In this document: positions 22,592-64,000 of the stretch, piece after piece
Numbering within the stretch: position 1 is the first letter of the stretch
Layout: the number at the start of each line of letters is the position of its first letter
Assembly: GCF_964204645.1 (NCBI RefSeq)
Contig: NC_134030.1
Location: forward strand, 11,119,947 to 11,183,946
Reading direction: 5' to 3'
From: Tubulanus polymorphus
Taxonomy: Eukaryota > Animalia > Nemertea
DNA length: 64,000 nucleotides
Translations under genes and position numbers: made by a program
The notes under the pieces: model-generated
What the model saw: the letters and a program-made list of their open reading frames with translations, nothing else
Databases searched by the model: none
Told to the model about the DNA's origin: nothing

Positions 22592-22620
22592 ATAATGAAA
22601 GTAAATGAACAAGCAATTAA

Positions 22621-41269: not shown

Positions 41270-41370
41270 AGATTAAAAGAAATCTAAAATCGAGAATTAT
41301 TTATTGAAATAATCTAAAACGTAAGAACATGGCGTTTCGATCTCACACTAGAGACCATCGTCAGGTGTGA
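41270..41370 (-). mobile_element. 3' terminal part of a Penelope-like element with a degenerate hammerhead-ribozyme motif
   Basis: Minus strand CTGACGA-T-GGTCTC-tagtgt-GAGATC-GAAAC followed by AATAAA; collinear with the GIY-YIG remnant on the other side of the Maverick. Confidence 0.6.
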
Positions 41371-41376
41371 GATATT

Positions 41377-41780
41377 AGTAGTATAGTCAGAGGGGGGTTC
41401 TGGCACAGCTAACTTTTGGGCTAACTGTGCTAATGTGAGCTAACTTTGAGCTAATGTAAGCTAACTTTTGAGCTAATCTGAGCTAACTTTTGAGCTAATC
41501 TGAGCTAATGTCGGTTAACATCTGAGCAAACTTTTGAGCTAATCTGAGCTAATGTTGGTTAACATCTGAGCTAATCTGAGCAAACTGTTGAGCTAATGTG
41601 AGCTAATATCGGTTAACATCTGAGCTAATTTGAGCTAATGTCGGTTAACATCTGAGCTAATCTGAGCTAACATTGAGCTAATGTGAGTGAATGAATGTTA
41701 ATACCGAGCTAATGTGAACTAGTTATCGGGCTAATGTCTATGTGTTATATGGAGCTAATGTGGGTTAACTATTGAGTTAG
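41377..41780 (+). repeat. Maverick left TIR (404 bp) made of GAGCTAA / GGTTAAC short repeats
   Basis: Reverse complement of 55444-55847; one mismatch noticed by eye. Confidence 0.95.
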
Positions 41781-42614
41781 CTATTGAGCTAATGTGTGTT
41801 AATGTTGTGCTGATGAGGGTTAACAGCGGGTTGTTTATACTATTTCTGGTATATGAGTAAATTTCTGAAAGTGTTGTGAAAGGGGGTACAGTAAAATCTG
41901 ATAGAACAAAGTATATGTTATAAGTATGGTATGATGATGTAATTATTTCGAGTGTTAATTAAACAGGGGAGACAAAACTATAAGTATAGCAAGATATTTT
42001 TTATTGAATGTGTCTGAAATGAATTCAACAGACAGGTGTGGATGTGATGGTGAATGTAGTTGAATAACAATAGGGGCTAACATGATAGTTGGGATATGCG
42101 AACTCAGATGACCTGTTAATGAGAATACAGAACAATAACACTCCGGTGTAATTTCGAGAGTTCCCACCGACGGTAATGGCATTTTTTCTCTTTATAATCT
42201 TCATTATGAATACTGGGTTCAATGTGATTTATTAGGTTTTGCTTCCGAGAATACTATCATAAATGAATTTATCGTCGGACATCTGTATTGAAACTCCCTG
42301 TTCTTTTCAAAAAGTAATGTGTTCAGAAGGTATTATCTGTTTGTTTTATTCGTTTCTGTTGATGACTGTTTGACTGAATAGATAGTAATATAGATTTTCT
42401 ACTCTGATGACCATCCCGGTGGTAAACCGTGAGAAAGTTTGAATATTCTCTTAACAGGGGGGTAAAACAGACATAGGTGGAGTGACAGTATTTAAAGAAA
42501 CAATGAAGATCAATCACGTGATTTAAAGTAGACCAATGGAATGATTCTGTGGTAACTTAAAAATTACGTTGATTGGTAAATTTTAACATCCTATTGTTGA
42601 TCGAACATTTAAAA

Positions 42615-42758
42615 ATGCCGACTACCGCAGCACGGTCTTTTTCGTTCCAACGCGCCGAAGTATCCAACAACGCAGAACCACGCTATCATCATCATCATCA
42701 TCATCATCGACATTATCGTCACCAAAGGAGACTAAGGAAAGAAAACTCATTTACTAAG
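42615..42758 (+). CDS. Putative 48-codon His/Arg-rich leader exon
   Basis: AAAATG start, MPTTAARSF..HHHHHHHRHYRHQRRLRK..TK, then a consensus donor AAG|GTAAGC; CACGTG and CCAAT boxes upstream. Confidence 0.45.
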
Positions 42759-42901
42759 GTAAGCTACGTATTATTTTCCTTAATTCTACATAATTCTTTT
42801 GTTTAGATATTCTCAATGTGAAATATGTATACTCGTTATCGAAATTTTTGCATTGTATCGAAAAATATTTTACAATTTTTATCAATTTTTTAAGATGAAA
42901 T

Positions 42902-43369
42902 TTACATTCTAATGAAATACTTGCTAACAAATTGTTTAACATAATAATCATTATACTCGTAATCAGTTTTACTAAAACTACTGAATATCTCGGGAAAACA
43001 CATACCGTGTGAGAGAAGAGTTACAAAATATATGCAATAATATCCGCAATTCGTACTAAACAAACTTTGTACTCTAACTCGAGAATAATCCCAGTAATGA
43101 CAGTGTGTATCTAAATAGTTTCTTAATATAATATTATAGAATTGCGGTTGTTGTCCGTAACTATCTAGGAAATAACCTTGTTTATTTGCAAATATTATAA
43201 AACAAATCCAATGTTCTCCGCTCTTATCACTATTTTGAGAGTTTACAATGAAAATACTGGGATACTCAGGAGGTTCGGGTAAACGATCAGCTGCGTAGAC
43301 ACCTTTAAACAATTTGTTCGCACAAGTATCTTCGCGCAAAATATTAATTAATTGATCGGTATACAACAT
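42902..43369 (-). CDS. Adenain-like cysteine maturation protease (155 aa from the ATG at 43369)
   Basis: GEHWI (His), FLDSYG (Asp), VQSLFSTNCGYYC (Gln, Cys); lies directly downstream of the capsid gene. Confidence 0.92.
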   Translation of the reverse strand: MLYTDQLINILREDTCANKLFKGVYAADRLPEPPEYPSIFIVNSQNSDKSGEHWICFIIFANKQGYFLDSYGQQPQFYNIILRNYLDTHCHYWDYSRVRVQSLFSTNCGYYCIYFVTLLSHGMCFPEIFSSFSKTDYEYNDYYVKQFVSKYFIRM

Positions 43370-43373
43370 CTTT

Positions 43374-44693
43374 TTAAAAATCTGTGACAACAGTGCGGTC
43401 TTTTGTAATTTCCAACACTTCATCAAAGTTGGCGTATAATAGTAAATTAATATTTTCTGGTAGAGGTTTTGAAAATTCCAATTCAACGCGAAGGGAACCC
43501 TTTTTACTGATAGCCAGGTCACTGAATCCGAAATCAGGTGTCAGATCGAATGCGGTTAGGAAATATCCGTTAGCATAATCTTTTCTGGTTATTCCAATTG
43601 TCTTATCTTGATATAAAATACCGGTGCCAGTGAACAATGAGAAATATCCTTCACTCAAGTCTTTCGACTCGAAATTTATTGCCGACGCTTCAACTTGCGA
43701 CCCATTGATGGACACCGCAATTCTAGTGATATCATAGTGTTTAAAGTCGAACGGGTTTTTATCGTAACTTCCACTCAGCGATTCGTCCGAGCAGAATCCG
43801 ATAATTATATTCCTCGGTAAATTTCCAATTATCAGATTATCTCTTATAACACTGCGTACTCCACGTGGTATATTCACCGGAAAAATGCTTGTTTTTACAA
43901 AATGGTATTTGGCATTACTAGTAGCCAATGCTTTCTCATGCGCTAACTGAACTGACGGGCTTAGTTGTACTCGTCGCACATTTAATGTAGCGTTTTCAAT
44001 TTTCACTTTGAACTTTACGTCTGGATTCGGGGACATTAAACAAAATGCATCCTTACTTCTGATTAACTTAACTTTAACCGTTACATTCGAGAGAAGTAGT
44101 TTATCTAGTCCGAACGCATCGCTGTGTAATCGAAGTTGCGCTTTTACGAGATTGTTCGGCTTTTTCAGTAAATCATAACGTTCTTTGAGACCCGAGTTAC
44201 AATTCGCGCTTCTAGGATCTGTATCGTTCATACGCCCGGCTTCGTCTTTATATATCATAGCACTTTCCATCCATCCCGGTTTCGTAGATGATTGACAAAA
44301 TATCAAGTTCTCAATAGCGGCTCTAATCGGGTGTAAGTCCATTCCATTACTAATTAATTTGTCGTTGAATCGTACCTCGACGTCACTGAATAGTGACTGA
44401 GCGTAATTAATAAGGGTAGCTACGGGATCATCTGCTTTGTCATTGTTCATCGGACTGCCATCGCCCTTTACAATTTTAAACGTTGCATCTAACCACGTGT
44501 GGTTTAAATCTAGATAATGTTGTGAGTTACCGGTTATAAGAAAATCGATATTTCCGCTATCCGTAATTGTAGCTAACGGTTGATATTTAGCATAATGTGC
44601 GGACTCCATAGTGATATTAGTCATCGGCAGTGAAAAGATGTCCAATTCACTCTTGAGTGCAGGGTGCGAGTCTTTGTGTACTTTCAAACCCAT
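43374..44693 (-). CDS. Major capsid protein (double jelly-roll, Maverick PY)
   Basis: 439 aa; KSELDIFSLP, YLDL, NPFDFKHY, GYFLTAFDLTPD and GSLRVELEF are typical Polinton MCP blocks. Confidence 0.9.
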   Translation of the reverse strand: MGLKVHKDSHPALKSELDIFSLPMTNITMESAHYAKYQPLATITDSGNIDFLITGNSQHYLDLNHTWLDATFKIVKGDGSPMNNDKADDPVATLINYAQSLFSDVEVRFNDKLISNGMDLHPIRAAIENLIFCQSSTKPGWMESAMIYKDEAGRMNDTDPRSANCNSGLKERYDLLKKPNNLVKAQLRLHSDAFGLDKLLLSNVTVKVKLIRSKDAFCLMSPNPDVKFKVKIENATLNVRRVQLSPSVQLAHEKALATSNAKYHFVKTSIFPVNIPRGVRSVIRDNLIIGNLPRNIIIGFCSDESLSGSYDKNPFDFKHYDITRIAVSINGSQVEASAINFESKDLSEGYFSLFTGTGILYQDKTIGITRKDYANGYFLTAFDLTPDFGFSDLAISKKGSLRVELEFSKPLPENINLLLYANFDEVLEITKDRTVVTDF

Positions 44694-44756
44694 GTTATAT
44701 CAGTGTTGATGTTGGCGATAACAATGAAGATGTTAACAATGATAACGATCAGTTAA

Positions 44757-45149
44757 TTAATATGCTTCCAGGCTTTCGATTGTTCCACGTTGACGTTTCA
44801 CCCGACGTCTATTCGACTTCGATTTTACTTTACGTTTTCTCTGATTATTCGGGGCTTTTAATACATTTCGAACGGCTGTTTTACCGTTATTCAATAACGA
44901 TTCTCCTAGATCTCTTCCACCAATGACGTCACCTATTGTGTTGACACCGGCTTTAACTATATGTGGTGCTGCTTTCTTTGCAATTGTCTTAAACAAAGGG
45001 ATCGCTCCCCTGAATAATCCTCCCAGAATAGATCCGATTCCTGCTCCTTTTTGTATCGGTCTACCGTGATAGAAATCATTCCCGCCACCCGCCTGCCGTA
45101 AATAATAATTACAGCAAGCGTCTTGATCTATGATACATTCGGTTTTCAT
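44757..45149 (-). CDS. Small basic Gly-rich virion core / membrane-active protein
   Basis: YYLRQAGGG, QKGAGIGSILGGLFRGAIPLFK amphipathic segment and a Lys/Arg tail; located between the penton and MCP genes. Confidence 0.8.
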   Translation of the reverse strand: MKTECIIDQDACCNYYLRQAGGGNDFYHGRPIQKGAGIGSILGGLFRGAIPLFKTIAKKAAPHIVKAGVNTIGDVIGGRDLGESLLNNGKTAVRNVLKAPNNQRKRKVKSKSNRRRVKRQRGTIESLEAY

Positions 45150-45958
45150 AGTAACAACTTTCGTCTAAAATGTAACACGAGGGATACTTTGCCCCTTTTA
45201 AAGATGGGCGGAGTACCACTGTCCTTAAACATATAGATTTCAATAACGTCCAGTCGATTACTCCTGAGCGGAAGATAATAAGGTCGTCTAAATTCACGAT
45301 CTATAACTGTTTGATTTATATCGTTTACACCTACAATCCTTAACAAAGGTGCGCTATCGTGTCCAACTTGTTGATGTTGAATTAACTCTGAATAGATTAA
45401 GATGTTATGATTATCGGCCATAAGGTCGACCGGTCTAGACGCTATGACCTCGACGTAGCCGAAGTTATCGGATGAACTTGCTTTTCCTATGATTTTAGTT
45501 TCGGTAATATCATCACTAAAAATGTCGGCGTCGACTACATGCATCGAAGGGAAGCCCAACACCCAGGCTAATTCCTTCCTGAACTTAATTTTCGCGTTAG
45601 CGGATAATCTAATCGAAACTCGTTGGCTTATCTCATTATACATTAGTTGTATTTTATTCGCTGCCGGTGATCGCGTTATAACCGAGTTCACATGTTCTAT
45701 CAATGTTTCGATATTTCTATACACACCGCCTGGCACGCTATACGCGTCACTCCATTGTCCATCACCAGAGTCCACATAAAATTCTCCAGTAATTACGTTG
45801 TCGAATTCGCAATTGAAATTTATGTGAACTAACGCGACTTCCCAATTACCTTCTAGGTTAATCGTCCCTCTCAATTTAACTTTAAACTTTTCTTGAGAGT
45901 TTCCTGGAAATTCATCCACGCTTCCATCGCTCAATAATGTTAGATAAAAGTCATGCAT
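45146..45958 (-). CDS. Minor capsid protein (penton, Maverick PX)
   Basis: FYLTLLSD..FPGN..F..L.GNWEVAL N-terminus and IYSELI..VG..APLLR..LHFR C-terminus. Confidence 0.88.
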   Translation of the reverse strand: MHDFYLTLLSDGSVDEFPGNSQEKFKVKLRGTINLEGNWEVALVHINFNCEFDNVITGEFYVDSGDGQWSDAYSVPGGVYRNIETLIEHVNSVITRSPAANKIQLMYNEISQRVSIRLSANAKIKFRKELAWVLGFPSMHVVDADIFSDDITETKIIGKASSSDNFGYVEVIASRPVDLMADNHNILIYSELIQHQQVGHDSAPLLRIVGVNDINQTVIDREFRRPYYLPLRSNRLDVIEIYMFKDSGTPPIFKRGKVSLVLHFRRKLLL

Positions 45959-47045
45959 TCTTCTTCTTTAGTTCTCGTGCCGGAATCCACGAATTGAATT
46001 TCGTCGGGTATCCCAACCACTTCACGAGCAACTCGCGGTTTCTTCCTCGACCGCGTCTTCTTATAATCTTCTCCACTCGGTAAACATCGTCGTTTTTAAT
46101 TACTTTTTGTAATTCGTGACGATAGAATTGTCCCTGAACCTGCTCACCCATTTGATCTATAACGTTATATGTCGGTGGGTTGTGCGGGATCTGTTTTGAA
46201 ACCGAGAATATTTCGTGCGACCATCCGGGTAAATAACCCTTGTCGAAATCTTTCTTATATCTTGCGATTCTGACGGTATCCCCAATAGAAAACTTGTACT
46301 GTTTGTTCATAAGAGACTCTTTTCCGTATAGGTTTTCCCACACCAACTTCTCATTATTTTCACTAACTTGAGACGGGTTCATTTTTATCGACCTATGATA
46401 CGAATTGTTGTAGGCATTTATAATCTTAGGAAGAACATCTATATAGGTTTTCGTCTTGTACGCGGTCATATAGCGGAATAATCTTCCCTTTAACGTTCTG
46501 ATGAATCGCTCGACAATACTACATTTCACTGTATCCTCGCTCGTAAAGTGATGAATGTTATACTTCTTTGTTATCTTACTAAAATATGCATTCAAAAATT
46601 CTTTGCCCTTATCACTTTGAACTTTTTTCATACGACTTTTAATCGCTATACCTTCGAATGCGCTACTAACTTCTCCACCATTTTTCGACTTTAGGGGTAT
46701 GGCGTAAGCGAATTTAGAAAAAACGTCGATCGAAACCAGTAGATATTTAATTCCTTTATTATACTTAGATATATTCGATAAATCACACAAATCGATTTGA
46801 TGCTGTTGATTGATACCGGATACTATTGTTCTATTCCTCTTGAAACGCACGCGAGTAGGACGATGAAGCGTATATGCCTCTTGCGATTTCAGAAAGTCTC
46901 TAATAACGTCTATACCAATTTCATTTCCGGACAGCTTCGCGGCGCGATGTAATGCATTCAAACCACCGAATGCGCTTGGGTTTTCTGGGTTGTAGTACAG
47001 GTTGTTCAGTATCTTTTTCAAGTCCGAGGTCAGGCGAGTCGACAT
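45951..47045 (-). CDS. int: Retroviral-like DDE integrase with C-terminal chromodomain
   Basis: LYYNP, QIDL (D), IDVFSK, QSDKGKEF (D), IVERFIRT (E), YNNSYHRSIKMNP; chromodomain YRVEKII..LVKWLGY..FNSWIP. Confidence 0.96.
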   Translation of the reverse strand: MSTRLTSDLKKILNNLYYNPENPSAFGGLNALHRAAKLSGNEIGIDVIRDFLKSQEAYTLHRPTRVRFKRNRTIVSGINQQHQIDLCDLSNISKYNKGIKYLLVSIDVFSKFAYAIPLKSKNGGEVSSAFEGIAIKSRMKKVQSDKGKEFLNAYFSKITKKYNIHHFTSEDTVKCSIVERFIRTLKGRLFRYMTAYKTKTYIDVLPKIINAYNNSYHRSIKMNPSQVSENNEKLVWENLYGKESLMNKQYKFSIGDTVRIARYKKDFDKGYLPGWSHEIFSVSKQIPHNPPTYNVIDQMGEQVQGQFYRHELQKVIKNDDVYRVEKIIRRRGRGRNRELLVKWLGYPTKFNSWIPARELKKKNA

Positions 47046-47142
47046 CGTCTTTCACTTTTGACTGTTGCACACAACACGAAATGTTGAATTTTTTACAATT
47101 AATGTTAATGAGCGATTGCGGTAAACAATCAGACTTCATCAT
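46921..47142 (-). CDS. Small Cys-containing ORF (73 aa) overlapping the integrase 5' end
   Basis: ATG 14 nt after the TBP-like stop; fills the only gap in the gene array; overlaps int by 125 nt in another frame. Confidence 0.4.
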   Translation of the reverse strand: MMKSDCLPQSLININCKKFNISCCVQQSKVKDDVDSPDLGLEKDTEQPVLQPRKPKRIRWFECITSRREAVRK

Positions 47143-47155
47143 TTCGTTATCCCGA

Positions 47156-47692
47156 TTATTCACACATATGCATATTGAACAACACATGCGGCAACACCGA
47201 AATCATCTGCTTTAAAGATTTACACCCGCTAATAATCACACATCCCTTATGTTGTATTATAAATGTAACATTTCCACAGCGAGATATGAGGCTGGGGGTG
47301 ATCTCCGGATCATATCGCCCACCTAATAACGTGTGTAGTTGGGATAAGTTAACTTTAATTCCCGTTCTCGCAACACCTGTCATTGTTTGAATTTTAAATT
47401 CTGTCAATCTAACGGCGGCAGTGGTATTAATCTTTTGTATCAATCTAGCAAATCGTCGCACACTGGTATAACTCTCGCTGGATGACTTTGCTCCGTTACA
47501 TACTATTCTCCCGCTTGCGAATAATAGACACGTGCCCCTGATGCGCTTATTCCTAAGAATTAATGCGTTAAATTTACGAGGGTTGTACACTACGTTTGAC
47601 ATTGTCCTAGACAACTCCTCTAGATTGAGCTTACAATTAAGATTTGCAGTCGCTACTACATTAACAACGTCGATCATTTCTGATGTTACCAT
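47156..47692 (-). CDS. TBP: TATA-box-binding-protein-like protein (divergent TBP core, 178 aa)
   Basis: Two TBP repeats: NVVATANL, YNPRKFNALILR, LLFASGRIVCNGAKS, RRFARLIQK; then FKIQTMTG, YDPEITPSLISR, VIISGCKS. Intronless and lacking an N-terminal extension. Confidence 0.9.
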   Translation of the reverse strand: MVTSEMIDVVNVVATANLNCKLNLEELSRTMSNVVYNPRKFNALILRNKRIRGTCLLFASGRIVCNGAKSSSESYTSVRRFARLIQKINTTAAVRLTEFKIQTMTGVARTGIKVNLSQLHTLLGGRYDPEITPSLISRCGNVTFIIQHKGCVIISGCKSLKQMISVLPHVLFNMHMCE

Positions 47693-47958
47693 TACGAGAA
47701 CTAGATACTAAATGAACTTGGATAAAATGAGATAGAATCTAAATTTTCTCCATTCATTCTCTTTCAGATATAGATCACTCGACGACAACGACGACGACGA
47801 CGTATATTAGAATTTCAAACTTACATTAGATTCATCAAAACGTATCAAGACAATCGAATAAAAAAGGTAATCCGATGATAAATTAGCTTTATCATTATTA
47901 TTATTATTACTATTATTATTATCATTATATTCTACAAATACACTAAACAAAAATATGT

Positions 47959-48696
47959 TCACATATAAATCCAATTTTCGAAATCTATATCTTTAGAATT
48001 TTTAGATGGCGTAGTCATCCTCCTCCTCTTCGTCATCTTTGCTTCGAATTCATTCTTAACGTTCGGGCGATTGTTAATTAATTTATTTCTAACGAATTTA
48101 TTCGGGATAAACGTCTGTGGAACGGACATATCTTGTAATGCCTTGATGAAATCGTCGAGTCCGTTCATTTGTTGAGACTTGTTAGGTGTCATGCAGAGAT
48201 TGATTAAATCGACGATATTACTATCATCTCTTTTGACACCTTTTACTATTATCTCCCCCTTATCGGTCCATGACAATATTTCGGAATATCGCTTTATTCG
48301 CTCCAATAACATTTCCGATTTCTTTCTATAGTTTTTCGGTACGTTATTCAAAATTTCCTGGTCGAATTCACTTTTAGTTTCGGTAGTTCGTTTTAAATCA
48401 CGATCGGTATTCAATGCACTGCTTTTACTTACTATGTTAGAATTAGTGATCGTCGACTCCTTTGAATGTTTTTCGATTTGCATTAGTTTATTCAACGCGT
48501 CGTTATACATCTTCAATTTCACGTCGTCCTTCACATCATTATCCATTTGAAGGATATCGGACATTTGACTTTCTATATTTTTCACGCGATTCGTTTCACC
48601 ACTCGAAGATTCTCGCTTGTCATCGGTTGATGTGATTTTTTCAATCATGGGAATAAATGATCCCGGAACAACGTAAAGTTTTTCAACGTTCTTCAT
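47959..48696 (-). CDS. Conserved Maverick protein of unknown function (PZ-like)
   Basis: 245 aa; K.KMYNDAL, LSWTDKGEI, SNIVDLI, G..DF..AL...VP..FI.N and a C-terminal W, as recalled from Maverick accessory ORFs. Confidence 0.7.
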   Translation of the reverse strand: MKNVEKLYVVPGSFIPMIEKITSTDDKRESSSGETNRVKNIESQMSDILQMDNDVKDDVKLKMYNDALNKLMQIEKHSKESTITNSNIVSKSSALNTDRDLKRTTETKSEFDQEILNNVPKNYRKKSEMLLERIKRYSEILSWTDKGEIIVKGVKRDDSNIVDLINLCMTPNKSQQMNGLDDFIKALQDMSVPQTFIPNKFVRNKLINNRPNVKNEFEAKMTKRRRMTTPSKNSKDIDFENWIYM

Positions 48697-49019
48697 TCCA
48701 TAAACCCGAGTAGTCGACCGATTCCTTTCAGTATCAGTCCAAGGAAACCGCCTTTTTGCACGATTAATGATTTTTTCGATTTAATCGGTACTCGTCTATT
48801 AGCGAGAATTCGAATCCACTTCTTATGTCGCTTCAATTTCTTTTTATCCGATTCGCTGTGTTTGATATTCCCTCTTAATGAATTTATACAGACTTCGCAA
48901 ATAACTTTCACTAATCTGTTCGACGATGATGACAGAATCGCATCGCGCATATTTTTCTTTCCATCGCATAAAAGTCTTAAGTGAGGAGCGAATTCCTTCA
49001 AATGCAAGTGGTTCCTCAT
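48693..49019 (-). CDS. Small basic conserved Maverick protein (PW/core-protein-like)
   Basis: 108 aa; ICEVCINSLRGNI, Lys-rich stretch, C-terminal QKGGFLGLIL; ATGA overlap with the next gene. Confidence 0.75.
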   Translation of the reverse strand: MRNHLHLKEFAPHLRLLCDGKKNMRDAILSSSSNRLVKVICEVCINSLRGNIKHSESDKKKLKRHKKWIRILANRRVPIKSKKSLIVQKGGFLGLILKGIGRLLGFME

Positions 49020-49052
49020 TTTATCAATTGACGATGTTCGCGTGAAATTACA

Positions 49053-49700
49053 TTATTTAATACTTTTTATCTTATAATAAATATGATATCCCTCGCTGGG
49101 AAATATTCGTGTGCGTAATCTCCATTTGTCCGACGTTTGTGGTTTGAAATCACAAAATAGATATCCACGCGGTGAAATTGAGGTCGCATCTGTAAACGCC
49201 TCCTCGAGCGATTTACCTAACCCGGACTGCATCGCTAAAGTCTTTACTTGGAGTCGATCCCTCGGATGCTTGAATAGAACTATATAATGCGTGTTTAACG
49301 ATATTGTCCGAAAATGAGGTCCTCTCGGGAAAAGGGTTTGCGATATTAGAATCACTTGAAGTTTTCTATGATGACTACCACGTGTAAAAATGGTCTCCAA
49401 TAATTTGGGGTCGCACTCGTTCAATACATCATCCAAAATAAGTAGTTTTGTTGTCTCTGAACCTGACAAACTTTCGTACAATTCCTCTGTTAAACCCTTA
49501 ATAAACTCAACTCCCTCTGTATCGTGATAGATTTCCTGATCTTCGGCGTACACCCAAACTATACGATCGGGAAATGGATCGAACATTCTTTCTTCAATCA
49601 ATCTTTTAGTAAAGACTGTCTTCCCGATACCAGTCATTCCATTGATAATCGACGTGAACCATCCTTGCAATTTAGTCGGCGGTAAATCAGCTATTTCCAT
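49053..49700 (-). CDS. A32/FtsK-like DNA packaging ATPase
   Basis: Walker A GMTGIGKT, Walker B LLILDD, RGSHHRK, ISQ, RTISLNTHY. Confidence 0.95.
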   Translation of the reverse strand: MEIADLPPTKLQGWFTSIINGMTGIGKTVFTKRLIEERMFDPFPDRIVWVYAEDQEIYHDTEGVEFIKGLTEELYESLSGSETTKLLILDDVLNECDPKLLETIFTRGSHHRKLQVILISQTLFPRGPHFRTISLNTHYIVLFKHPRDRLQVKTLAMQSGLGKSLEEAFTDATSISPRGYLFCDFKPQTSDKWRLRTRIFPSEGYHIYYKIKSIK

Positions 49701-49822
49701 TGCCCCCTTTTACCACAGATTAACAGAATCAAAATTAACAGCGATCTATCCAAAACACGTTCATTTTAAAGATTATTATCCACACATTATATTTATTTCT
49801 GTCTTCCTTTCTTTTTCTTTAG

Positions 49823-50361
49823 ATGGCACAGAAACAAGTATCAGAACGACTCAGCTTAGGACCAGTCGCCCTACCCAAGCGGTATGGGTGCACAATGTGC
49901 GAGCTGGTGTTCGCACACGCCAGCTCGAGATCCCGGCACATTAACCGGGTGCACAAAAAGAGTAAACCGCTTTGTGCCAAATGCGGGGAGGGGTTTAGCA
50001 CGACGGCCTACCGGGACAGGCACCAATCACGTTGTGCGAGACCCCTCCCAATCCCAGCGGCACGACGGCGACTGGTCCTTGAAGCACCGGCACCGCCAGC
50101 AGCAGCAGTAGGGGCGCCGCCAGCAGCAGCAGTGCCAGCAGCAGCAGTAGGGGCGCCGCCAGCAGCATCAGTGCCAGCAGCAGCAGTGCCAGCAGCAGTA
50201 TTGCCAGCAGCAGCAGTAGGGGCGCCACCAGCAGCATCAGTGCCAGCAGCAGTATTGCCAGCAGCAGCAGTAGGGGCCCCACCAGCAGCAGCAGCAGTGC
50301 CAGCAGCAGTGCCAGCAGTAGTAGGGGCACCACCAGCAGCAGCAGGGGCACCACCAGCAGC

Positions 50362-50399
<38 letters not shown>

Positions 50400-53300
50400 G
50401 GGCACCACTGGAATGGGAATGGGAAGAGTTACCGGATCTTGATGAGGAAACTCTTGCCCTCATCGGGATCCGGCAAGGTGGCGCCTTAGAGGGGTATGTA
50501 CGAAAATACGAGTTCCCATCCACTGAAAACAACAAGTTTGATTTAATTAAATTTTATAACGATATCAAACCGCATCTCATCCGACTGCTTAAAGATGATT
50601 TAAGTAGATTGGGTGGGATAAAATGGTTTACCAGCATTCATATAATTTTAGAAAAAGATATCGATGGTGTCCATCAACAAAGGACTGTGTATTTTACTAG
50701 CCACACTCGAAGTGCTTTCAATGGTGAACAATTTGACGAGCTCTTGGATCAGGCTAAGAATAAAATGATCCAATTATTGGAACAATACAATACTGAGGGT
50801 ACTGGTTGGAGGTTTGATTATGTCGAAGTGTTCGATCTACACGTCGGCATATATGAACCATTAGGTGGAGGTTCGTATATACCCTCTCCTCGTGTAATCG
50901 TTTCACGAGGAGGGGTTATAAATATCCAAAATTTCGACAATATGTGCTTTCTTTGGTCTATACTCGCCCACCTCCACCGAATGGACACGAACCCCCAACG
51001 AGTATCTAAGTATTTACGGTACAGAGACGAATTGAATATGAACAATATCAATTATCCAGTAACCGTAGAACAAATACCCATTTTCGAACAGCAAAACGAT
51101 ATATCAGTTAACGTATTTGCCTATGAGGATGGAAATATTTTTGTTCGTCGTTTGAGTGATAATCCACGCGCAAATCATGTTAATTTATTATTACTAGTTG
51201 ATAACGATAACGCCCATTATTGTTTGATAAATGACCTTAGTAAATTCCTTTTCCATCTAAACAAAAAGAAAGCCAAATGTTTTTGGTGTTTTAAGTGCAT
51301 GCACTCTTTTTTATCGCAAGAAAATCTTGATGTTCATACTCGGTACTGTATTCAAGGAATACAAAAGACAATCATGCCACCGACAGATGAGAATGTCTTG
51401 AAATTTGTTAATGTCACAAAACAGCACAAACTGCCATATGTGATATATGCTGACTTCGAAATGTTTTTAGAACCGATTGAGGGGTGTAAATTGAACCAGA
51501 ATCAATCTTGGACATATCGTTATCAGGTTCATGAACCGTGTGGATTTTGTTTTAAAGTCGTTGGCCCTGACACCAGACATTCCCATCCGACAGTCCTTTA
51601 TAGAGGAGACGATGTTATGAAGAAATTCTTAACATCCCTCCTCGAAAAAGCAGAGGAAATATTACAGGAATACAAAAATCCTCAACCTTTGGTTATGAAC
51701 GACGTCGATGAAACACACTTCAAATCAACTGATATTTGTCATATATGTAAGGAAACCATAAATGGTAAGAAATGTCGGGATCACGATCATATAACCGGCA
51801 AATACAGAGGCCCAGCTTGTAATTCATGTAATCTGAGTTATAGGGTTCCTAATTTCATACCTGTGATATTTCATAACTTGAAAAGTTATGACAGTCATGA
51901 AATTATTAGATCATTGGGCTTGGTTGAATTTAGGGGGTATAGAATTTCAGTGATCCCGACGAACACTGAAAAGTTTATCGGATTTACACTTGGTCCCCTA
52001 CGCTTCATCGACTCGTTGGCATTTCTCAATACCTCTCTCAGTACTCTTACGGAAAATTTGGTCAATTCGGGTAGAGAGAAATTCATTCATTTAAACTCGG
52101 AGTTCCCCGCCAATAAACTTGATCTTTTATTACGTAAAGGTGTTTACCCATACGACTACATGACAGGTTCGGAGAAATTTAATGAGACAAGTCTCCCTCC
52201 TAAGGAGGCATTTACCAACACCCTGACGAACACTGAAATTTCGGTAGATGACTACAAACATGCACAGAATATTTGGTCGCAGTTTAACATGGCAAACATG
52301 GGCGAGTATCACGATCTCTATCTTAGAACCGACGTATTGCTACTTTCAGATATTTTCGAGGAATTCCGCAAGTTCGCTCATAAGAGCTACGGATTAGATC
52401 CTTGTCATTACTACACTCTACCCGGCTACTCATGGGATGCCTGCTTGAAACTGACAAAAGTCGAACTTCAATTGTTCACTGAAGTCGATATGTATTTGTT
52501 CATAGAACAGGGGATACGCGGCGGAATATCTGTTATTACCCATCGATATTTCGAGGCTAATAACAAGTATTTCGCCGATTACGACGAGGCCAAGGAGTCA
52601 TCTTATATCATGTATTTAGATGCTAATAATCTGTATGGGTGGGCAATGTCTCAGGCATTGCCTGTTGGTGAATTTAGGTGGTTAGAAACAGAAAACGATC
52701 CCCTTTGGCCCGACGCTCAGGATATTTTAACGATGACGGACGACGCCCATTTCGGCATGATACTCGAAGTGGACCTTGAATACGGTGCCGAGTTACACGA
52801 TCTACATAACGATTTACCGTTAGCTCCGGAGCGCATGTTAGTCAACGAAGATTTAATGTTATCTCCGTATCAAAAGCTTCTATTTCAGACTTTGAAACTA
52901 TCGTCCAGCAAGATACACAAGCTTATCCCTAATCTTTACAATAAAACTCGGTATATTGTTCATTATAGGAATTTGAGGCTTTACATGAAACTTGGTATGA
53001 AATTAACAAAGATTCATCGTGTTCTCCATTTTCGACAATCAGCCTGGATGTCACCGTACATTGCTTTGAATACCGAATTCCGAAAAAATGCGAAATCCAA
53101 TTTTGAGAAAGATATGTACAAATTACTGAATAATGCAAGTTTTGGCAAGACAATGGAGAACATTAGGAATCGAATCAACTACCAAATTATTAACGAACCG
53201 GGGAAATTGAGAAAAGCTCTAGCGAAGCCATCTACGATTTCATGGAACATTATTTCGGAGAATGTTGTGGGGGTAAAAAAACAGCAGATTTCGATCAAGT

Positions 53301-53926
53301 TGGATAAGCCTGTGTATCTTGGCTTTTCAATTTTAGACATAAGCAAAACGTTAATGTATGATTTTCATTATAACACCATCAAGGCAGGATACGGGGATAA
53401 CGCTAAACTTCTTTTTACAGATACGGATAGTTTAACGTACGCTATTCGCAGCAACGATTTGTACACGGATATGGCGGGGATTTCCGACCAGTTCGACTTT
53501 TCAGCCTATCCCACCGGCCATCCTTTATTCTCGGACAAAAATAAGAAAGTACTAGGCAAATTTAAGGATGAGACCAATTCTTTTCCCGTTAAAGTGTTCT
53601 GCGGTTTACGGAGTAAGATGTATTCAATGACATATCTTTCTCCGGATAACAACGGAACACTTGTGGAAAAGAAAACTGCAAAAGGTGTTGCGAAGTACGT
53701 CGTTAAGCAGTCCGTATCCCATAATAACTACGTTGATTGCTTGCGTAATCAATCACGTATGATGGCTAACATGCGGTCTATCCGGAGCTTCAATCATAAG
53801 TTACATTCAGTTAATTTAAATAAAGTCGGATTATCACCATACGACGACAAACGTTATATACTAGATGATGGTGTAAGCACATATGCTTATGGTCATCATA
53901 AAATTCCGGAGATAAATCATCATTAA
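49823..53926 (+). CDS. polB: Protein-primed family B DNA polymerase with N-terminal zinc fingers, Ala/Pro linker, terminal-protein and OTU-like regions, and an endonuclease VII-like insert
   Basis: Exo motifs YADFE, FHNLKSYD, YLRTDV; Pol motifs YLDANNLYG, KLLNNASFGK, FTDTDS; HNH-type CHIC..DHDHITGKYRGPACNSCN; uninterrupted 1367 aa. Confidence 0.97.
50085..50408 (+). repeat. Coding GCA-rich minisatellite (Ala/Pro/Val linker in pPolB)
   Basis: Recurrent GGGGCGCCGCCAGCAGCA / GTGCCAGCAGCA units and a (GCA)n run. Confidence 0.9.
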
Positions 53927-54376
53927 AAGAACAAGTCGTTATACTTAATATATATTTGCATATCTTTATTTATTCATAGTTATAAACATTGATTTATTTA
54001 CACTCACTTATACATGCGTTTATGTTTTCAGTTTTACTTTAAACTATTTAACTAATATATATATTTATTTATTTATCTTATCTATTTATTTAAGATTATA
54101 TGAAAGTTGGTAAACCATTGGTTTAATATCGTTATAAGTGTTTTCTATATTTCTTTTTATTTCAGGGATGGGATCTAACTCGTACCCCCTCTAAGCGCAC
54201 CTTTTCCCGTTTTTTTTTTTTTCTTCCTTTTCTACTTTTTTATGCCAATTTCCCTATAATTCTTTTTTAAAATAAATAAAGAAAAAACCAGCATTTGATT
54301 ATTAACATAATTCATGACTTTAGTTTTTGATATTTATCTATATATGGATTGAGGATACAGGAGATACATATATTCA

Positions 54377-55227
54377 TTAATCATCGATTTGGAATACAGG
54401 ATGAGGATTACAGTAAACACACTGGAGAGCACCCATCTGATTCTGATGATCATCATTGAACATACACGCTTTCATCCCAACGAGTTCAGGTTCCAAATCA
54501 ACGAAAGAAATATTCATCAGTTTCTCCCACTGTTTTTCAGATAGTTCTATCCCGGTTTTCGTATGAACTCGTTGTTCCGTTGCAGCTATATAACAAAAAT
54601 ATCTAATGTCGATTATAACCTTATTGAAACGTTTGAACACGGTCACGTATCGGTTCCTACCGACGTGTAATCGAAAATCCTCTATGATATTATTGTTATT
54701 GTTGCTTTCATTAAACGAATTGATGGCGGAATTTATGGAATCTCTATGCCAGTCGAGATTAGCCCATTCTTGCAGGTGTAGGCTAATGCCGCGTTTCGTT
54801 GGAAATAATCGAAGGTCATCACTGAGTTCATAAGTTCGTATGTCAACACGTTTAACATCCTGCCACTCGCTGACACACGCAAACACTAAATTGCCCAGAT
54901 AATGACGTTTCACATCCGCTTTCGCATAGACGTATTCTTCTTTAGACTCACTCAGTTTTATATCCGTTTGTACACAAGCATTCTCTTTAACAACCGTATC
55001 TATGACAAAAGAAAAGATAATATGGTTACATTACAAGTGAAACAATAAATAACTCAAAGGAGGAGAGGATGTTTTACAAACAAACAAATTAATTACACAT
55101 ACATACCAGGCTTAGCAGCGTTAATATCTAGCTTTAAATTCTTGAAATTCAGTCTTCGAGGCCTCTTTTTTGGAGCATCAGGTTCAGACATGTTTCGTTT
55201 CAACACGGGAGTTGTGTGCGTATCCAT
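54377..55227 (-). CDS. Two-exon gene for a tandem PC4 (p15/Sub1)-like ssDNA-binding protein, about 247 aa
   Basis: Exon 1 55227-55107 (NLS-like PKKRPRR), GT-AG intron 55106-55000, exon 2 54999-54377 in frame. Two PC4 repeats: VSEWQDVKRVDIRTY..PTKRGISL..EW and YVTV..KVIIDIRYF..TKTGIELSEKQW. Confidence 0.85.
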
Positions 55228-55267
55228 GATCAACTCAACGAATGAAATCACCTTTGGAGAACACACG

Positions 55268-55289
55268 TTATATACCCCTCATGACGTCA
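55268..55289 (-). promoter_or_regulatory. TATA box plus CRE/ATF site upstream of the PC4-like gene
   Basis: Minus-strand TATATAA at 55274-55268, about 40 nt before the ATG, and a perfect TGACGTCA at 55282-55289. Confidence 0.6.
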
Positions 55290-55443
55290 GATATTTTTCA
55301 GAACGAGGATCGTAATCATCGAAACAATTGATAATTTGCATATGTTTATATTCATCCAGATCTAACCATATTCAAATGATCTCGTTTATAAATTTCACAC
55401 ACACCAGCTCAATAGATTACCATAAAAACCGGTAACTAAATAC

Positions 55444-55847
55444 CTAACTCAATAGTTAACCCACATTAGCTCCATATAACACATAGACATTAGCCCGATA
55501 ACTAGTTCACATTAGCTCGGTATTAACATTCATTCACTCACATTAGCTCAATGTTAGCTCAGATTAGCTCAGATGTTAACCGACATTAGCTCAAATTAGC
55601 TCAGATGTTAACCGATATTAGCTCAGATTAGCTCAACAGTTTGCTCAGATTAGCTCAGATGTTAACCAACATTAGCTCAGATTAGCTCAAAAGTTTGCTC
55701 AGATGTTAACCGACATTAGCTCAGATTAGCTCAAAAGTTAGCTCAGATTAGCTCAAAAGTTAGCTTACATTAGCTCAAAGTTAGCTCACATTAGCACAGT
55801 TAGCCCAAAAGTTAGCTGTGCCAGAACCCCCCTCTGACTATACTACT
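55444..55847 (-). repeat. Maverick right TIR (404 bp)
   Basis: Ends CTGACTATACTACT followed by the TSD GATATT. Confidence 0.95.
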
Positions 55848-55853
55848 GATATT

Positions 55854-57190
55854 GACTAAAAACAAGGGTATATATAAAGAGGAGAACAGGTTAATTGAGT
55901 AAATTGGTGAGTGAGTAACTAATTAGTGTTTGGCAAGGCATGAAGTAATATACTTAGAAAGAAGGGAATTATGAGGAGAAAAGCCATTATTTAAATTGGT
56001 ACTAATATCTGAGTGACGAGTAATTAGGGAAGACTCAACTATGTGGCGTTTAGTGTAATTGCTGGAAGTATAAATAATTTCAGCTTGTTTATCAAAATTA
56101 AAACGATGACCAGTGTTCCAAACATGATTGGCTACACCACTAGCCGGTTTTTGATTTATTATATCCTTTTTGTGTTCCGAAATTCGAGTTTTTAAATCAC
56201 GACCAGTTTATCCAAAGTACATTTTATCACAGCCAAAACGAGGAATTTTGTAAACTCCGCAGTCCAAAGGTTTAGATTGATTGTTTTTTACCAAAGTCTT
56301 GTTAATTTGGTTTTCATACGTGAAAATGATTTGTCTATCCAATAAAGGGAGAGAGTGACGAAACTTTTCCAAAACAGGTACATACGGAACTACAATGAAT
56401 TCTGAAATGTTTTTTTTTATTTTCTGGAGGTTTAGAATTAAAGAAAGTACGTTTAGCCTTAGAAATAGCGATTTTCAAAATGTGATCAGGGTAAGCCAAT
56501 TTTTTAAGAGAGTTGGATATGTGGTCAAATTCAGCCGAAAGGAAGGTTTCATCGCAAATCCGCAGTGCACGGAGAAAGAGGCCTTGAAAAAAACAAATGA
56601 GAGTATTTATTGTGAATTAGAACGTCTAAAAACGGGATTTGGTCATTTTGTTCCCATTCAAATGTGAATTTCAAAGATGGATATTGAGAGTTGATGAATG
56701 AAGTCAATAAAAGAGTTAAGATCAAAATCATCAGAAACTAAAGTACAGAATGTTATCAACACATCCAATCCAAAAGTTAGGTCCAGAGCAGCGTAATTTC
56801 GGAAGAATTTCGCATTCAAAATGTTCAAGGAAAAGATTAGCCAAAATGGGGGATAATGGGTTGCCCAAAGCGAAACCGAAATTTGTTCATAGATTTTGTC
56901 TTGGGACTGGAAGTATAGATTGGTTGTACAGAGCTCCAAAAGTTCAAGTAAGCAATCTACAGGAACCGGGAGATCAAGATTGGAGTCCGGGAGTTTTCTT
57001 CTTAATAAATTGAGAGTTGGTTCCAATGGTATATTTGTGAACAAGGATCGATATAGCGTCGAAACATATAAATTTTTGGCCATTAGGTTTGAGATTTTTT
57101 AGTTAGTCTAAAAGATCCATATTGTGCCGAATGTGAGAATCAGAAAAAGTACCCAGAGCGGGTACTGTACTTTAGCCAGATATTTTGACG
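55854..57190 (-). pseudogene. Decayed Penelope-like retroelement (RT + GIY-YIG endonuclease)
   Basis: RT remnants SLFTNIPL, NLYFQ..IYEQ, FTFEWEQNDQIPFLDVLI; GIY-YIG remnant CGVYKIP..CDKMYFG*TGRDLKTRISEHK..VANH at about 56265-56120; several frameshifts. Confidence 0.85.
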
Positions 57191-59935: not shown

Positions 59936-61672
59936 TAAACCATTTTACAGTTGCTAGCCGCCATTTTGTTAGGGTACTTTTGTCCCGTATTGTTGGGTCA
60001 TTTTTTTCTCTTTTTTAAAAACTATCCGTGATGTGTATTGTATCATATTTCATCTGTCGATGGATGGATTTTGACAACTTCAGCAACATTCAAACCGCGT
60101 GAATCTCTAGTTTTCAGTTATGTTAAAATCATTCCTCAGATTTACAACAATGCGACATGAGAGCGATATAAAAATCGGTGCTCAGTTTTTGCCTTGCGCA
60201 TAGAAATCCAGGGTACTGAACTTTGAAGTTCGTTATTTTCAGAAATAATTTTCTAAAAAATCCAAACATTTCAAGCACTGTGCGCATAAATGCCCCCTTT
60301 TAGGTGAACTTTGAAATTTTAAGATATCTTGCCTAGTTTTTTTCCTATGGCTCTTTAACTGCAGCGCGTGTATTGTCATTCCGAGATTCGGCGCTGTTTT
60401 CTTTGCGTGTATTTCAGTATATGGGAGTTATTTCTTCATTTTCACTACACTTGTCTCTACGGAAAATGGTTTTAATTGTTGGTACGAGTATCAGGTTTAA
60501 ATATCACGTCGTTTATGCAATATAATAGATCGGAGACATTAGAGATGTTGGGGTTTAAGGGATTTTTCTGACCAGTTTTAGCAGCGAGACTGAGCGGCAT
60601 TTTGATCACGCATTCGAAGTTGCGCGCGGGAAGAGAATATATGGGCCTATATTGAGATGGAAGAAGAAAAGAAATATAGCACTCAAAATCGAGTATGATG
60701 ACCATTTAAATCAGTAGTCTATCAATAAATTTACATAAAAATCTACTGAAATTAGATGGATGGAGAAGTGGTCAAAAAGCTGGACAAATGGGGTGGGGCA
60801 AATATTCAGCTACTTTCTATGAATACTTTCTATTAAGTACACTCAAGATTGATTAGATTGGGAAGAAAATATAGGAAAACGTTTTCTTTTTTTCGAATGT
60901 CAGACGCAGGTGATAAAAAGTAAAAAGTGACATCTACCATCACCAAAAACGCAAGAAGTGTGTGGATTGCATTTACAACAAAAGAGTGATATTTTGGGTT
61001 TTCTTAGGTGCATGTACGTAAGCCTCTGCCTGCCGTAAAAGCGGTTACCATTACAGCCATTACGAACTAGCGCCGGAGAACGGAATACAGTATTAATGCC
61101 GTAATATTTAAACCTGATACTCGTACCAACAATTAAAACCATTTTCCGTAGAGACAAGTGTAGTGAAAATGAAGAAATAACACCCATATACTGAAATACA
61201 CGCAAAGAAAACAGCGCCAAATCTCGGAATGACAATACACGCGCTGCAGTTAAAGAGCCATAGGAAAAAAACTAGGCAAGATATCTTAAAATTTCAAAGT
61301 TCACCTGAAAGGGGGCGTTTATGCGCACAGTGCTTGAAATGTTTGGATTTTTTAGAAAATTATTTCTGAAAAAAACGAACTTCAAAGTTCAGTACCCTGG
61401 ATTTCTATGCGCACGGCAAAAACTGACCACCGATTTTTATATCGCTCTCATGTCGCATTGTTGTAAATTTGAGAAATGATTTTAACATAACTGAAAACTA
61501 GAGATTCACGCGGTTTGAATGTTGCTGAAGTTGTCAAAATCCATCCATGGACAGATGAAATATGATACAATACACATCACGGATAGTTTTTAAAAAAGAG
61601 AAAAAAATGACCCAACAATACGGGACAAAAGTACCCTAACAAAATGGCGGCTAGCAACTGTAAAATGGTTTA
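59936..61672. repeat. 569-bp inverted duplication (59936-60504 vs 61104-61672) with a ~600-bp spacer
   Basis: Arms are reverse complements with only a few substitutions; no TSD seen. Confidence 0.9.
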
Positions 61673-63554: not shown

Positions 63555-63900
63555 CTCGAAAAATCATTTTGTGAAGTCGACTTACAAACTCGAAAAGTCT
63601 ACTTATTAACTCAAAAAGTCGACTTTTTAAACTCGAAAAGTCGACTTACTAACTCGAAAAGTCTTAAAAGGCTTAATAACTCGAAAAGTCGACTTTTAAA
63701 AGTCGAAAAGTCGACTCATTAACTCGAAAAGTCGACTTATTAAAGTCGAAACGTCGACTTATTAAGTACTCGAAAATACGACTTTTTAAACTCGAAAAGT
63801 CGACTTAATAACTCGAAAAGTCGACTTACTAAGTCGAAAAGTCGACTTAATCACTCGAAAAGTTGACTTTTCAAAGTCGAAAAGTCGACTTTTTAAACTG
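63555..63900. repeat. Subterminal ~21-bp tandem array (AACTCGAAAAGTCGACTT) of the IS3EU right end
   Basis: Many imperfect units containing the palindrome AAGTCGACTT; a shorter inverted array lies at 31085-31160. Confidence 0.9.
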
Positions 63901-64000
63901 AAAATAAAATGTTGTTGGCCGTATTGCTCTTCCGTAATAACGTAACCAAGCTAACAAAAAAAAGTTCAAAGAACATTTTCTAAAAGTTTTTCACTAACAT

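Follow-up and report, generated by a model that had tools for sequence, protein, structure and literature searches.

The 64,000-nt window of Tubulanus polymorphus DNA analysed here (contig NC_134030.1) holds an intact 14.5-kb Maverick spanning positions 41377-55847. Its AGTAGT termini lie at 41377 and 55847, its terminal inverted repeats differ by 1 mismatch across the first 404 nt, and the empty form of the site, joining 41370 to 55848, is represented by 218 X5 reads and also occurs in X1 and X2 contigs. The preliminary description had placed a TBP-fold protein, a double PC4 protein with an NLS-like motif and two pPolB zinc fingers in one intact element, and all three proved to be real as judged by Pfam, AlphaFold2 and the termini and target-site duplication. 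The features, by position, are:

41371..41376, again 55848-55853, no strand: 6-bp target-site duplication GATATT (sequence and empty form)
41377..41791, plus: left terminal inverted repeat, AGTAGT end, 18 GAGCTAA copies
42515..42576, plus: candidate host-type promoter, E-box CACGTG at 42515, CCAAT at 42533, reversed CCAAT at 42572; putative function
42615..42758, plus: candidate first leader exon of pPolB, 48-codon His/Arg-rich ORF ending in phase 0 at donor AAG/GTAAGC
42902..43423, minus: adenain-like maturation protease (Peptidase_C5, E 0.0011, below cut-off)
43374..44693, minus: presumed major capsid protein (MCP), no Pfam match, placed by the gene order in the available text of PMC8097293
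44757..45149, minus: presumed PW protein, by gene order alone
45146..45958, minus: presumed minor capsid protein (mCP), homologues in related loci, gene-order label
45951..47045, minus: retroviral-type integrase with chromodomain (rve E 2.9e-09, Chromo E 1e-08)
47156..47692, minus: short TBP, 178 aa, full saddle (PF00352, E 1.4e-33, two repeats)
47768..47866, plus: candidate second leader exon, non-coding, 99 nt, in the PZ-TBP gap; second-best of 380 plus-strand acceptors
47959..48696, minus: presumed PZ protein, 245 aa (gene order, weak homologues)
48693..49019, minus: presumed PM protein, 108 aa (gene-order label; homologues adjoin the ATPase in 11 loci)
49053..49700, minus: packaging ATPase (Pox_A32/Adeno_IVa2 weak; 37-42% identity to Polinton ATPases)
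49800..49822, plus: polypyrimidine tract and TTTAG acceptor immediately 5' of the pPolB ATG; best of 380 acceptors
49823..53926, plus: pPolB (polymerase motifs; domain order after the available text of PMC11161782)
54377..54999, minus: PC4 exon 2, with both PC4 repeats plus a C-terminal Cys/His cluster (Pfam, splice model)
55107..55227, minus: PC4 exon 1, 40 codons, basic NLS-like motif (splice model)
55267..55289, minus: CRE TGACGTCA (55289-55282) and TATATAAC (55274-55267), upstream of PC4
55433..55847, minus: right terminal inverted repeat

The AGTAGT-ended inverted repeats, 6-bp duplication, protein-primed PolB and retroviral-type integrase identify the element as a Polinton/Maverick; its packaging ATPase and adenain-like protease fall below the Pfam cut-offs and are backed by homologues in related elements. 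The presumed double and single jelly-roll capsid proteins gave no Pfam match, although the same-position ORFs of related loci are homologous, the presumed major capsid protein being 25-27% identical to its counterpart in related Polintons. An Rfam search returned 0 matches. Set against Polintons/Mavericks (adintoviruses), whose vertebrate architecture is laid out in the available text of PMC8097293, the element has the same AGTAGT ends, long TIRs, 6-bp TSD and pPolB, and the order of genes within the ATPase-PM-PZ and integrase-mCP-PW-MCP-protease blocks is identical. In contrast to the vertebrate elements described there, its pPolB points away from the ATPase, with the other core genes on one strand, TBP and PC4 genes are extra, and introns are predicted, whereas that text describes intact vertebrate Polintons as intronless. 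The pPolB-ATPase gap measures 122 nt, and the PC4 gene faces pPolB.

The TBP gene lies where the two conserved Maverick gene blocks meet, and the largest gap of the gene array (266 nt) precedes it. It had been described as lying inside the virion gene array; its neighbours are the presumed PZ gene and the integrase, and it is not strictly within virion genes. A possible 117-nt 5'-UTR intron has a donor at 47824 and an acceptor at 47707, both weak. The AlphaFold2 model of the protein (mean pLDDT 97.2) is a two-repeat saddle that superposes on solved cellular TBPs at a TM of about 0.9 and on the best viral models at 0.7-0.8, with identities in the structural alignments of 30-33% to cellular and <20% to viral TBPs. 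Using yeast TBP residue numbers, which we assume and which PMC12529657 backs in part, the DNA-contacting residues of the N-lobe are all kept in this copy (N69, V71, F99, R105, L114, F116), while the DNA face of the C-lobe has been rebuilt, with N159, V161, F190, V203, L205 and F207 all replaced (among the changes N159>T, V161>T, F190>T and F207>Q). The canonical TATA-binding set is thereby reduced to two of four intercalating phenylalanines (F99, F116) and one of two base-reading asparagines. A putative acidic TFIIB-contact stirrup, D128-P-E130, is present.

This TBP falls in a clade of short TBPs, with a median length of 172 aa and a FastTree support of 0.964, that takes in 87 of the 265 TBP-family sequences; in a 55-sequence subsample the exact clade received 60% ultrafast bootstrap, rising to 97% with one tip more. 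Because the nearest relative is 53% identical and the clade has 87 members, a neutral one-off capture is argued against. Taken with the pLDDT of 97.2, the clade supports the view that this TBP folds well and belongs to a distinct, conserved family, and is not a decaying one-off. Among the 85 family members with T/S at yeast N159, the V161 position is S/T in 84, the E188 position is acidic in all 85, and the V203 and L205 positions are mostly polar; the remaining TBP sequences keep V161 in 172/180 and L205 in 172/180. F190 is retained in 66/85 and F207 in 68/85, and N69, V71 and F116 are kept across most of the family. This TBP and its nearest relative lack both C-lobe phenylalanines, a rare double loss (5/85). 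As read from these alignments, the short-TBP family is one in which a single DNA face has undergone directed change with the TFIIB contact preserved.

KSHV ORF24 is a proven late-promoter TBP mimic whose DNA face is more polar and in which all four phenylalanines are required, according to the available text of PMC12529657. The element TBP shares with this beta/gamma-herpesvirus protein a TBP fold carried by a virus or element and a polar DNA face, late-promoter selection with host Pol II being here a proposed model. ORF24, as portrayed in that text, has all four phenylalanines but not the acidic TFIIB residues, carries additional domains and depends on five partner proteins, whereas the element TBP is a bare 178-aa core that retains the stirrup and is missing two phenylalanines; Pfam searches of the element ORFs found no partners of the herpesvirus-type late preinitiation complex. 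Since double phenylalanine loss is rare and ORF24 is reported there to require all four, DNA binding by the element TBP may be weak or lost. Cellular and giant-virus TBPs have the same two-repeat saddle, but the element TBP is without an N-terminal extension.

The novelty implied by the preliminary description is lowered by Starrett et al. 2021 (PMC8502044; preprint 10.1101/697771), in whose available text TBP appears as a figure-legend label (Fig. 5) for MELD viruses with adintovirus-like PolB. A TBP-like gene thus lies on a Polinton-type genome in both cases; there it is a bare label in a section on non-animal datasets, and residue analysis, function and PC4 are absent from the main text as available. 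The terms TATA, TBP and PC4 have 0 occurrences in the available main texts of PMC11131425, 10.1101/2023.08.22.554363, 10.64898/2026.06.19.733378 and 10.64898/2026.10.13.758929, whose supplements and figures may label such genes. Outside subscription papers, a literature search for 'Polinton' with 'PC4' gave one paper, where PC4 is a cluster label.

The PC4 gene is predicted to consist of two exons (55227-55107 and 54999-54377) flanking a 107-nt GT-AG intron (55000-55106, phases 1+2) and to encode a 247-aa product, with the PC4 domain (PF02229, E 1.8e-17) matched in two stretches within 54377-55030. Exon 1 carries KR-8x-KKRPRR, which we take to belong to the NLS-like motif class. The host-type CRE+TATA promoter claimed for this gene holds, with TGACGTCA and TATATAAC at 55289-55267; the CRE palindrome has only 5 occurrences in the 64-kb window. 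Fold prediction without an alignment gave no usable PC4 fold (pLDDT 35.6), and a homologue search returned 0/40 candidates. In alignments to 4usg, 1pcf and 6ycs, the position of W89, a DNA-stacking residue according to the available text of PMC4350104, is taken by E in the first repeat and by C in the second. Exon 1 has a basic cluster and a single serine, without a serine-rich/lysine-rich N-terminal regulatory region; human-type PC4 has a serine-rich one (PMC9223095, available text). The available text of PMC7549692 describes a replication role for a phage T5 PC4 homologue and notes that the fold also exists in single-chain forms with two repeats. The element protein thus shares its PC4 domain, here twice per chain, with the PC4/Sub1 family, the T5 homologue and the two-domain bivalve genes covered in the accessible part of PMC9223095; it differs from the PC4/Sub1 family in lacking W89 and the serine-rich N-terminus, in its added Cys/His cluster and in being carried by a mobile element. 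As W89 is missing in both repeats, a role in ssDNA binding is also weakened.

The N-terminus of pPolB, a protein 37-54% identical to those of the pPolB loci, bears two fingers, one C2H2 (residue 23) and one C2HC (residue 51), the zf-C2H2 match (Pfam E 4.4e-05) falling just short of the curated cut-off. Both fingers belong to the polymerase polyprotein, where they come before the presumed terminal-protein (TP) and vOTU domains, and vOTU-like motifs follow; the available text of PMC11161782 proposes that TP is cut from pPolB by vOTU. None of 54 other pPolB ORFs had paired N-terminal fingers. Relatives were gathered through pPolB as 5 viral loci and the best 80 of 306 metagenome loci, with some duplicates and most of them short; viral-contig locus searches with the TBP, the MCP, P0178 and the ATPase and integrase alignments yielded no locus. 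The TBP profile had 0 matches in 8849 six-frame segments of the pPolB loci, a search informative for L048, L057, L060, L064 and L066 only. Among 28 ORFs picked from these loci there was one weak PC4 match, below the Pfam cut-off, in L066, a near-complete related Polinton with this weak PC4-like gene and no detectable TBP.

These observations bear on the earlier proposal that TBP and PC4, with the zinc fingers, form a Pol II initiation and coactivator set, encoded by the element, which turns on the late genes. W89 mutants of PC4 lose ssDNA binding and keep coactivation, and the absence of W89 here would therefore suit such a set, as would the presence of TBP and PC4 in one intact element and the NLS-like motif and host-type promoter of PC4. 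Set against this are a PC4 exon 1 with one serine and no human-type serine-rich region (PMC9223095, available text), the PC4-like gene of the TBP-less L066, the fusion of the fingers to the polymerase, their pairing being seen in none of the 54 other pPolB ORFs, and, as a lead, ESM Atlas PC4 clusters assigned to Preplasmiviricota (scores 0.88). The single transcription module is not supported, as PC4 lacks W89 and the serine-rich region, L066 has a PC4-like gene without TBP, and the fingers belong to the polymerase polyprotein; we regard it as unlikely. Thus TBP, PC4 and the zinc fingers probably do not form one Pol II module, and replication is likely to fit PC4 and the fingers better than transcription.

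The candidate left promoter at 42515..42576 is without a TATA, and the 48-codon leader ORF had no Pfam match. The leader donor is the best of 777 plus-strand GT sites and the pPolB acceptor the best of 380 plus-strand acceptors, both in phase 0; in the 49.5-kb flanks, equally high scores are reached by 5 of 5374 donors and by none of the 2322 YAG acceptors. The donor of the second leader exon (AAG/GTAATC at 47867) is moderate, the left donor has an alternative usable acceptor 48 nt away, and four sense AATAAA lie inside the long candidate intron. Run X7, presumed to be RNA, gave three short partial matches only. The splice motifs predict an adenovirus-E2B-like pPolB message in which splicing bridges the whole particle-gene block of the opposite strand. 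In adenovirus E2B, the polymerase message arises from a distant promoter and its short leader exons are spliced across opposite-strand late genes; distant promoter and leader splicing over antisense late genes would be alike here, whereas TP and polymerase are one ORF in the element.

No common box upstream of the nine minus-strand genes stood above random windows, a comparison of nine windows with low power. The best exact 7-mer was found upstream of 3/9 genes (controls 3-5), TAAGAA upstream of 2/9 (1.0 expected), TATAAG upstream of 2/9 (0.7 expected) and TATATAAG upstream of 0/9. AAAAGG, present at 3/9 genes against 1.0 expected, had been picked post hoc and was rejected as a late box.

The explanation that we favour, and to which we give about an even chance, is that the short TBP is the element's own promoter-selecting factor, acting with host TFIIB and Pol II, while PC4 and the pPolB fingers serve DNA replication. 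Two host-type end promoters would be the first to fire, both directed inward: the CRE+TATA promoter of PC4 at the right end and the CCAAT/E-box promoter at the left. The left transcript would be spliced over 7064 nt (42759-49822), perhaps via the 99-nt middle exon, to the pPolB ATG, and on this proposal would therefore be antisense to the whole particle/TBP block. The tandem PC4, as a single-chain dimer, would hold the displaced strand in protein-primed replication, and the zinc fingers would remain on the terminal protein after vOTU cleavage, which would put them at the genome ends. TBP, likely to recognise a non-standard promoter together with host TFIIB, would bind a non-canonical A/T box, bend it less than host TBP does, recruit TFIIB through its acidic stirrup and so drive the minus-strand particle and integrase genes.

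Alternatively, TBP could be a decoy or repressor, tying up host TFIIB or further TBP partners or obstructing host TBP. The four substitutions F190>T, F207>Q, N159>T and V161>T drop most C-lobe base contacts while the D-P-E stirrup stays, and no target box was found upstream of the nine minus-strand genes. However, this copy keeps the whole N-lobe set, N69, V71 and F116 persisting across most of the family; the family changes converge on T/S/H/N, resembling new specificity and not loss; and most members keep F190 and F207. We judge a decoy improbable. A TBP that binds or bends the ends or an internal site in replication or packaging, or a recently captured host gene without a role, seems very improbable, since the missing late box and the 18 GAGCTAA units of the terminal repeats, which some factor could read, are met by an E188 position acidic in 85/85 and a TFIIB stirrup hard to explain without transcription, and the 53% identical relative and 87-member clade oppose a neutral capture.

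The promoter-selecting TBP can be extended, doubtfully, to a two-phase adenovirus-like programme in a lineage ancestral to adenoviruses: a spliced early left transcript would make the polymerase and repress the antisense particle genes by read-through, and the half-rewired TBP, bending one site, would bring TFIIB and Pol II to a private box as a one-protein late switch.

To our knowledge, Mavericks have no RNA polymerase gene of their own. A bare TBP with one altered DNA face and an intact TFIIB contact would, if true, be a much more compact arrangement than the six-protein complex of herpesviruses, and the short TBP would be a natural test of what TBP needs for transcription start with two phenylalanines only. 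The two-domain 'PC4 expansions' of bivalves may, as a lead, be partly element-borne. If the 7-kb intron is real, Polintons offer a parallel to, or a precursor of, the adenovirus E2B-style layout, and annotation based on ORFs alone overlooks how Polintons are regulated.

The following features of the element, a complete Maverick, carry the argument.

41377-55847: complete Maverick of 14,471 nt, with AGTAGT ends, inverted repeats and a target duplication
47156-47692, minus strand: short TBP ORF (PF00352, E 1.4e-33)
42615-42758, 47768-47866 and 49800-49822, plus strand: two candidate pPolB leader exons and acceptor; the predicted intron spans 7064 nt

The inverted repeats differ at one position over the first 404 nt, GATATT is duplicated on either side and the core ORFs are all open, bearing out the preliminary description of an intact element. 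The genes run in the order ATPase, 108 aa, 245 aa, TBP, integrase, 270 aa, 130 aa, 439 aa and protease, and the same two gene blocks are described for vertebrate Mavericks in the available text of PMC8097293; the labels PM, PZ, mCP, PW and MCP were assigned from that gene order and from homologues in related loci. The element-free joined form was present in same-species data (218 reads in set X5, and contigs in X1 and X2), and read depth was 150-640 in the flanks versus 5-75 in bins entirely within the element. Since both flanks consist of high-copy repeats, paralogous repeat copies may be the source of these reads, which establish that the junction exists but not that an allele lacks the element. 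Other same-species copies have internal deletions of 164, 274 and 575 nt in the pPolB region 51467-52999, so that degraded relatives coexist with the intact copy.

Several other repeats occupy the surrounding DNA. Frames at 55923-57083 in the right flank resemble decayed reverse-transcriptase and GIY-YIG pieces, presumably of a Penelope-type element, and gave no Pfam match. The inverted repeat at 59936-61672 (arms of 588 nt, 97% complementary, 561 nt between) is a foldback or MITE-like element, and 62647-63270 on the minus strand holds an integrase-core ORF of another transposon (rva_4, E 6.6e-26). A 106-nt inverted repeat joins 63831-63936 to 31041-31146, and nested inverted repeats of 80-180 nt cluster at 21900-23301 and 27756-28720. 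Cargo of related metagenome Polintons included protein kinases (L064:66-2069 and L049:6337-8112) and a RING finger (L048:7634-8731).

The TBP-fold protein proposed earlier was confirmed by the profile match and by an AlphaFold2 model (39-row alignment; pLDDT 97.2) with a TM of ~0.9 to cellular TBPs, models of viral TBPs being poorer structural matches. All 35 PDB sequences matching the ORF are TBPs or TBP fusions. In the accessible parts of PMC8502044 and the preprint 10.1101/697771, MELD viruses with adintovirus-like PolB have a gene labelled TBP, and no published analysis of TBP or PC4 in Mavericks was found in the main texts of the freely accessible papers searched. A full-library search returned 4106 matches, the closest full-length single-core relative (P0009) being 53% identical. 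In a tree of the query with 265 of 269 fetched proteins (four of >420 aa were left out and one further row was removed for gaps), the element TBP fell within a clade of 87 short TBPs with a median of 172 aa (FastTree support 0.964); all 30 members sampled in a 55-sequence IQ-TREE subsample grouped together, with an ultrafast bootstrap of 60 that became 97 once a single further tip was included. Among the top matches of the family profile, several represent clusters, each of 17-198 sequences, located on contigs of megabase size, and one sits on a contig of 15.6 kb, a pattern that would fit multicopy elements.

The signature of this family is limited to the C-terminal DNA face (residues are in what we take to be the yeast numbering). 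Among the 85 family sequences with T/S at N159, V161 is S/T in 84, H/N predominates at V203 and T/S/C at L205, while N69, V71 and F116 are kept and the TFIIB stirrup residue E188 is acidic in every one. E93, which we assume to be a TFIIA contact, is mostly lost in the family. The numbering is partly confirmed by the available portion of PMC12529657. The element TBP departs from the canonical set of four phenylalanines, having lost both F190 and F207; since only five of the 85 family members have done so but these include its closest relative, P0009, the loss is a shared feature rather than decay of the element's copy. Its nearest functional model is KSHV ORF24, which also has a polar DNA face, and which selects late promoters; as described in the accessible text of PMC12529657, however, ORF24 cannot do without any of its four phenylalanines and has no acidic TFIIB residues, whereas the element TBP lacks F190 and F207 and has the acidic stirrup. 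We conclude that the element TBP is a real, conserved variant, which most likely acts as a promoter selector.

A TBP-driven late switch of the minus-strand genes would be the next step, for which promoter windows gave no direct support. No sequence word of 7 to 9 nt in the windows 20-160 nt ahead of the nine minus-strand genes rose above random windows, at the low power of one element with unmapped start sites; TAAGAA and TATAAG each occurred before two of the nine genes and TATATAAG before none. A second CRE palindrome with adjoining CCAAT (44920-44931) falls within the presumed PW gene, 238 nt ahead of the ATG of the presumed major capsid gene; this may be a chance occurrence.

The PC4 gene is predicted to comprise two exons separated by an intron of 107 nt. 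Its product of 247 aa has two PC4 repeats, a basic motif resembling an NLS and, at its end, a Cys/His cluster, in agreement with the double-PC4 protein first described. The CRE and TATA-type promoter motifs claimed for it were also found, at 63 nt (CRE) and 48 nt (TATATAAC) upstream; the CRE palindrome occurs five times in the 64 kb window. Sequence relatives were found among none of 40 candidates, and the ESM Atlas gave one mostly eukaryotic PC4 cluster of 251 aa and two others largely assigned to Preplasmiviricota (scores 0.88, leads only). Both repeats lack W89, a DNA-stacking residue, and the serine-rich region of human PC4 (PMC9223095, in part) has no counterpart in exon 1. In L066, a related Polinton that is nearly complete, PC4 is matched weakly (E 0.012; 0.0042 when trimmed) and TBP not at all, and a PC4 homologue of phage T5 is described as a replication factor in the available text of PMC7549692. 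Taken together, these points favour replication as the better reading of PC4, albeit unproven given the loss of W89. As many as 18 PC4 genes are reported in bivalves, and some of these genes encode a pair of PC4 domains (PMC9223095, in part), an expansion that could be in part Maverick-borne.

The pPolB transcript is predicted to be spliced over 7064 nt from the left end of the element. Only 122 nt separate the pPolB ATG from that of the divergent ATPase gene, and directly before the pPolB ATG stand a 20-nt stretch with 19 pyrimidines and then TAG, an acceptor that ranks first of 380 on the element's plus strand and is matched by none of 2322 flank sites. With a generic donor matrix, the donor at 42759 ranks first of 777 on that strand, five of 5374 flank sites scoring equally high; it closes a 48-codon ORF in phase 0, with an E-box and two CCAAT boxes ahead. 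A 99-nt candidate exon, bounded by the acceptor ranking second (47768) and a donor of moderate strength (47867), falls in the widest gap between the antisense genes; it would be a non-coding leader because it reads as having a stop in every frame and no ATG. Both candidate leader exons carry CATC and GAC repeats, presumably resembling SR-protein splicing enhancers, and we take the layout to resemble adenovirus E2B. Against the long intron stand an acceptor 48 nt beyond the left donor and four sense AATAAA within the intron. A weak donor and acceptor at 47707-47824 on the minus strand could delimit a 117-nt 5'-UTR intron of the TBP gene, near the PC4 intron in size. Intact vertebrate Mavericks are reported without introns in the available text of PMC8097293, in contrast to this element with its predicted PC4 and pPolB introns.

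The two zinc fingers noted at the pPolB N-terminus are present, at residues 23 and 51, followed by an Ala/Pro linker in which 60 of 123 residues are Ala and 27 are Pro, behind which lie vOTU-like Cys and His motifs (373-378 and 463-468). In 54 long pPolB ORFs from related loci (5 viral and the best 80 of 306 metagenome loci), some of them 5'-cut or duplicated, an internal finger like that at residue 489 of the element occurred in all 54 and the N-terminal pair in none. If the vOTU cuts behind TP, as proposed in the accessible text of PMC11161782, the fingers would be retained at the genome ends, whose terminal repeats contain 18 units of GAGCTAA. For the fingers, a part in replication is more likely. 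The first interpretation, of a Pol II transcription module, is supported in part: TBP stands as a conserved variant and likely promoter selector, while PC4 and the fingers are likelier to belong to replication.
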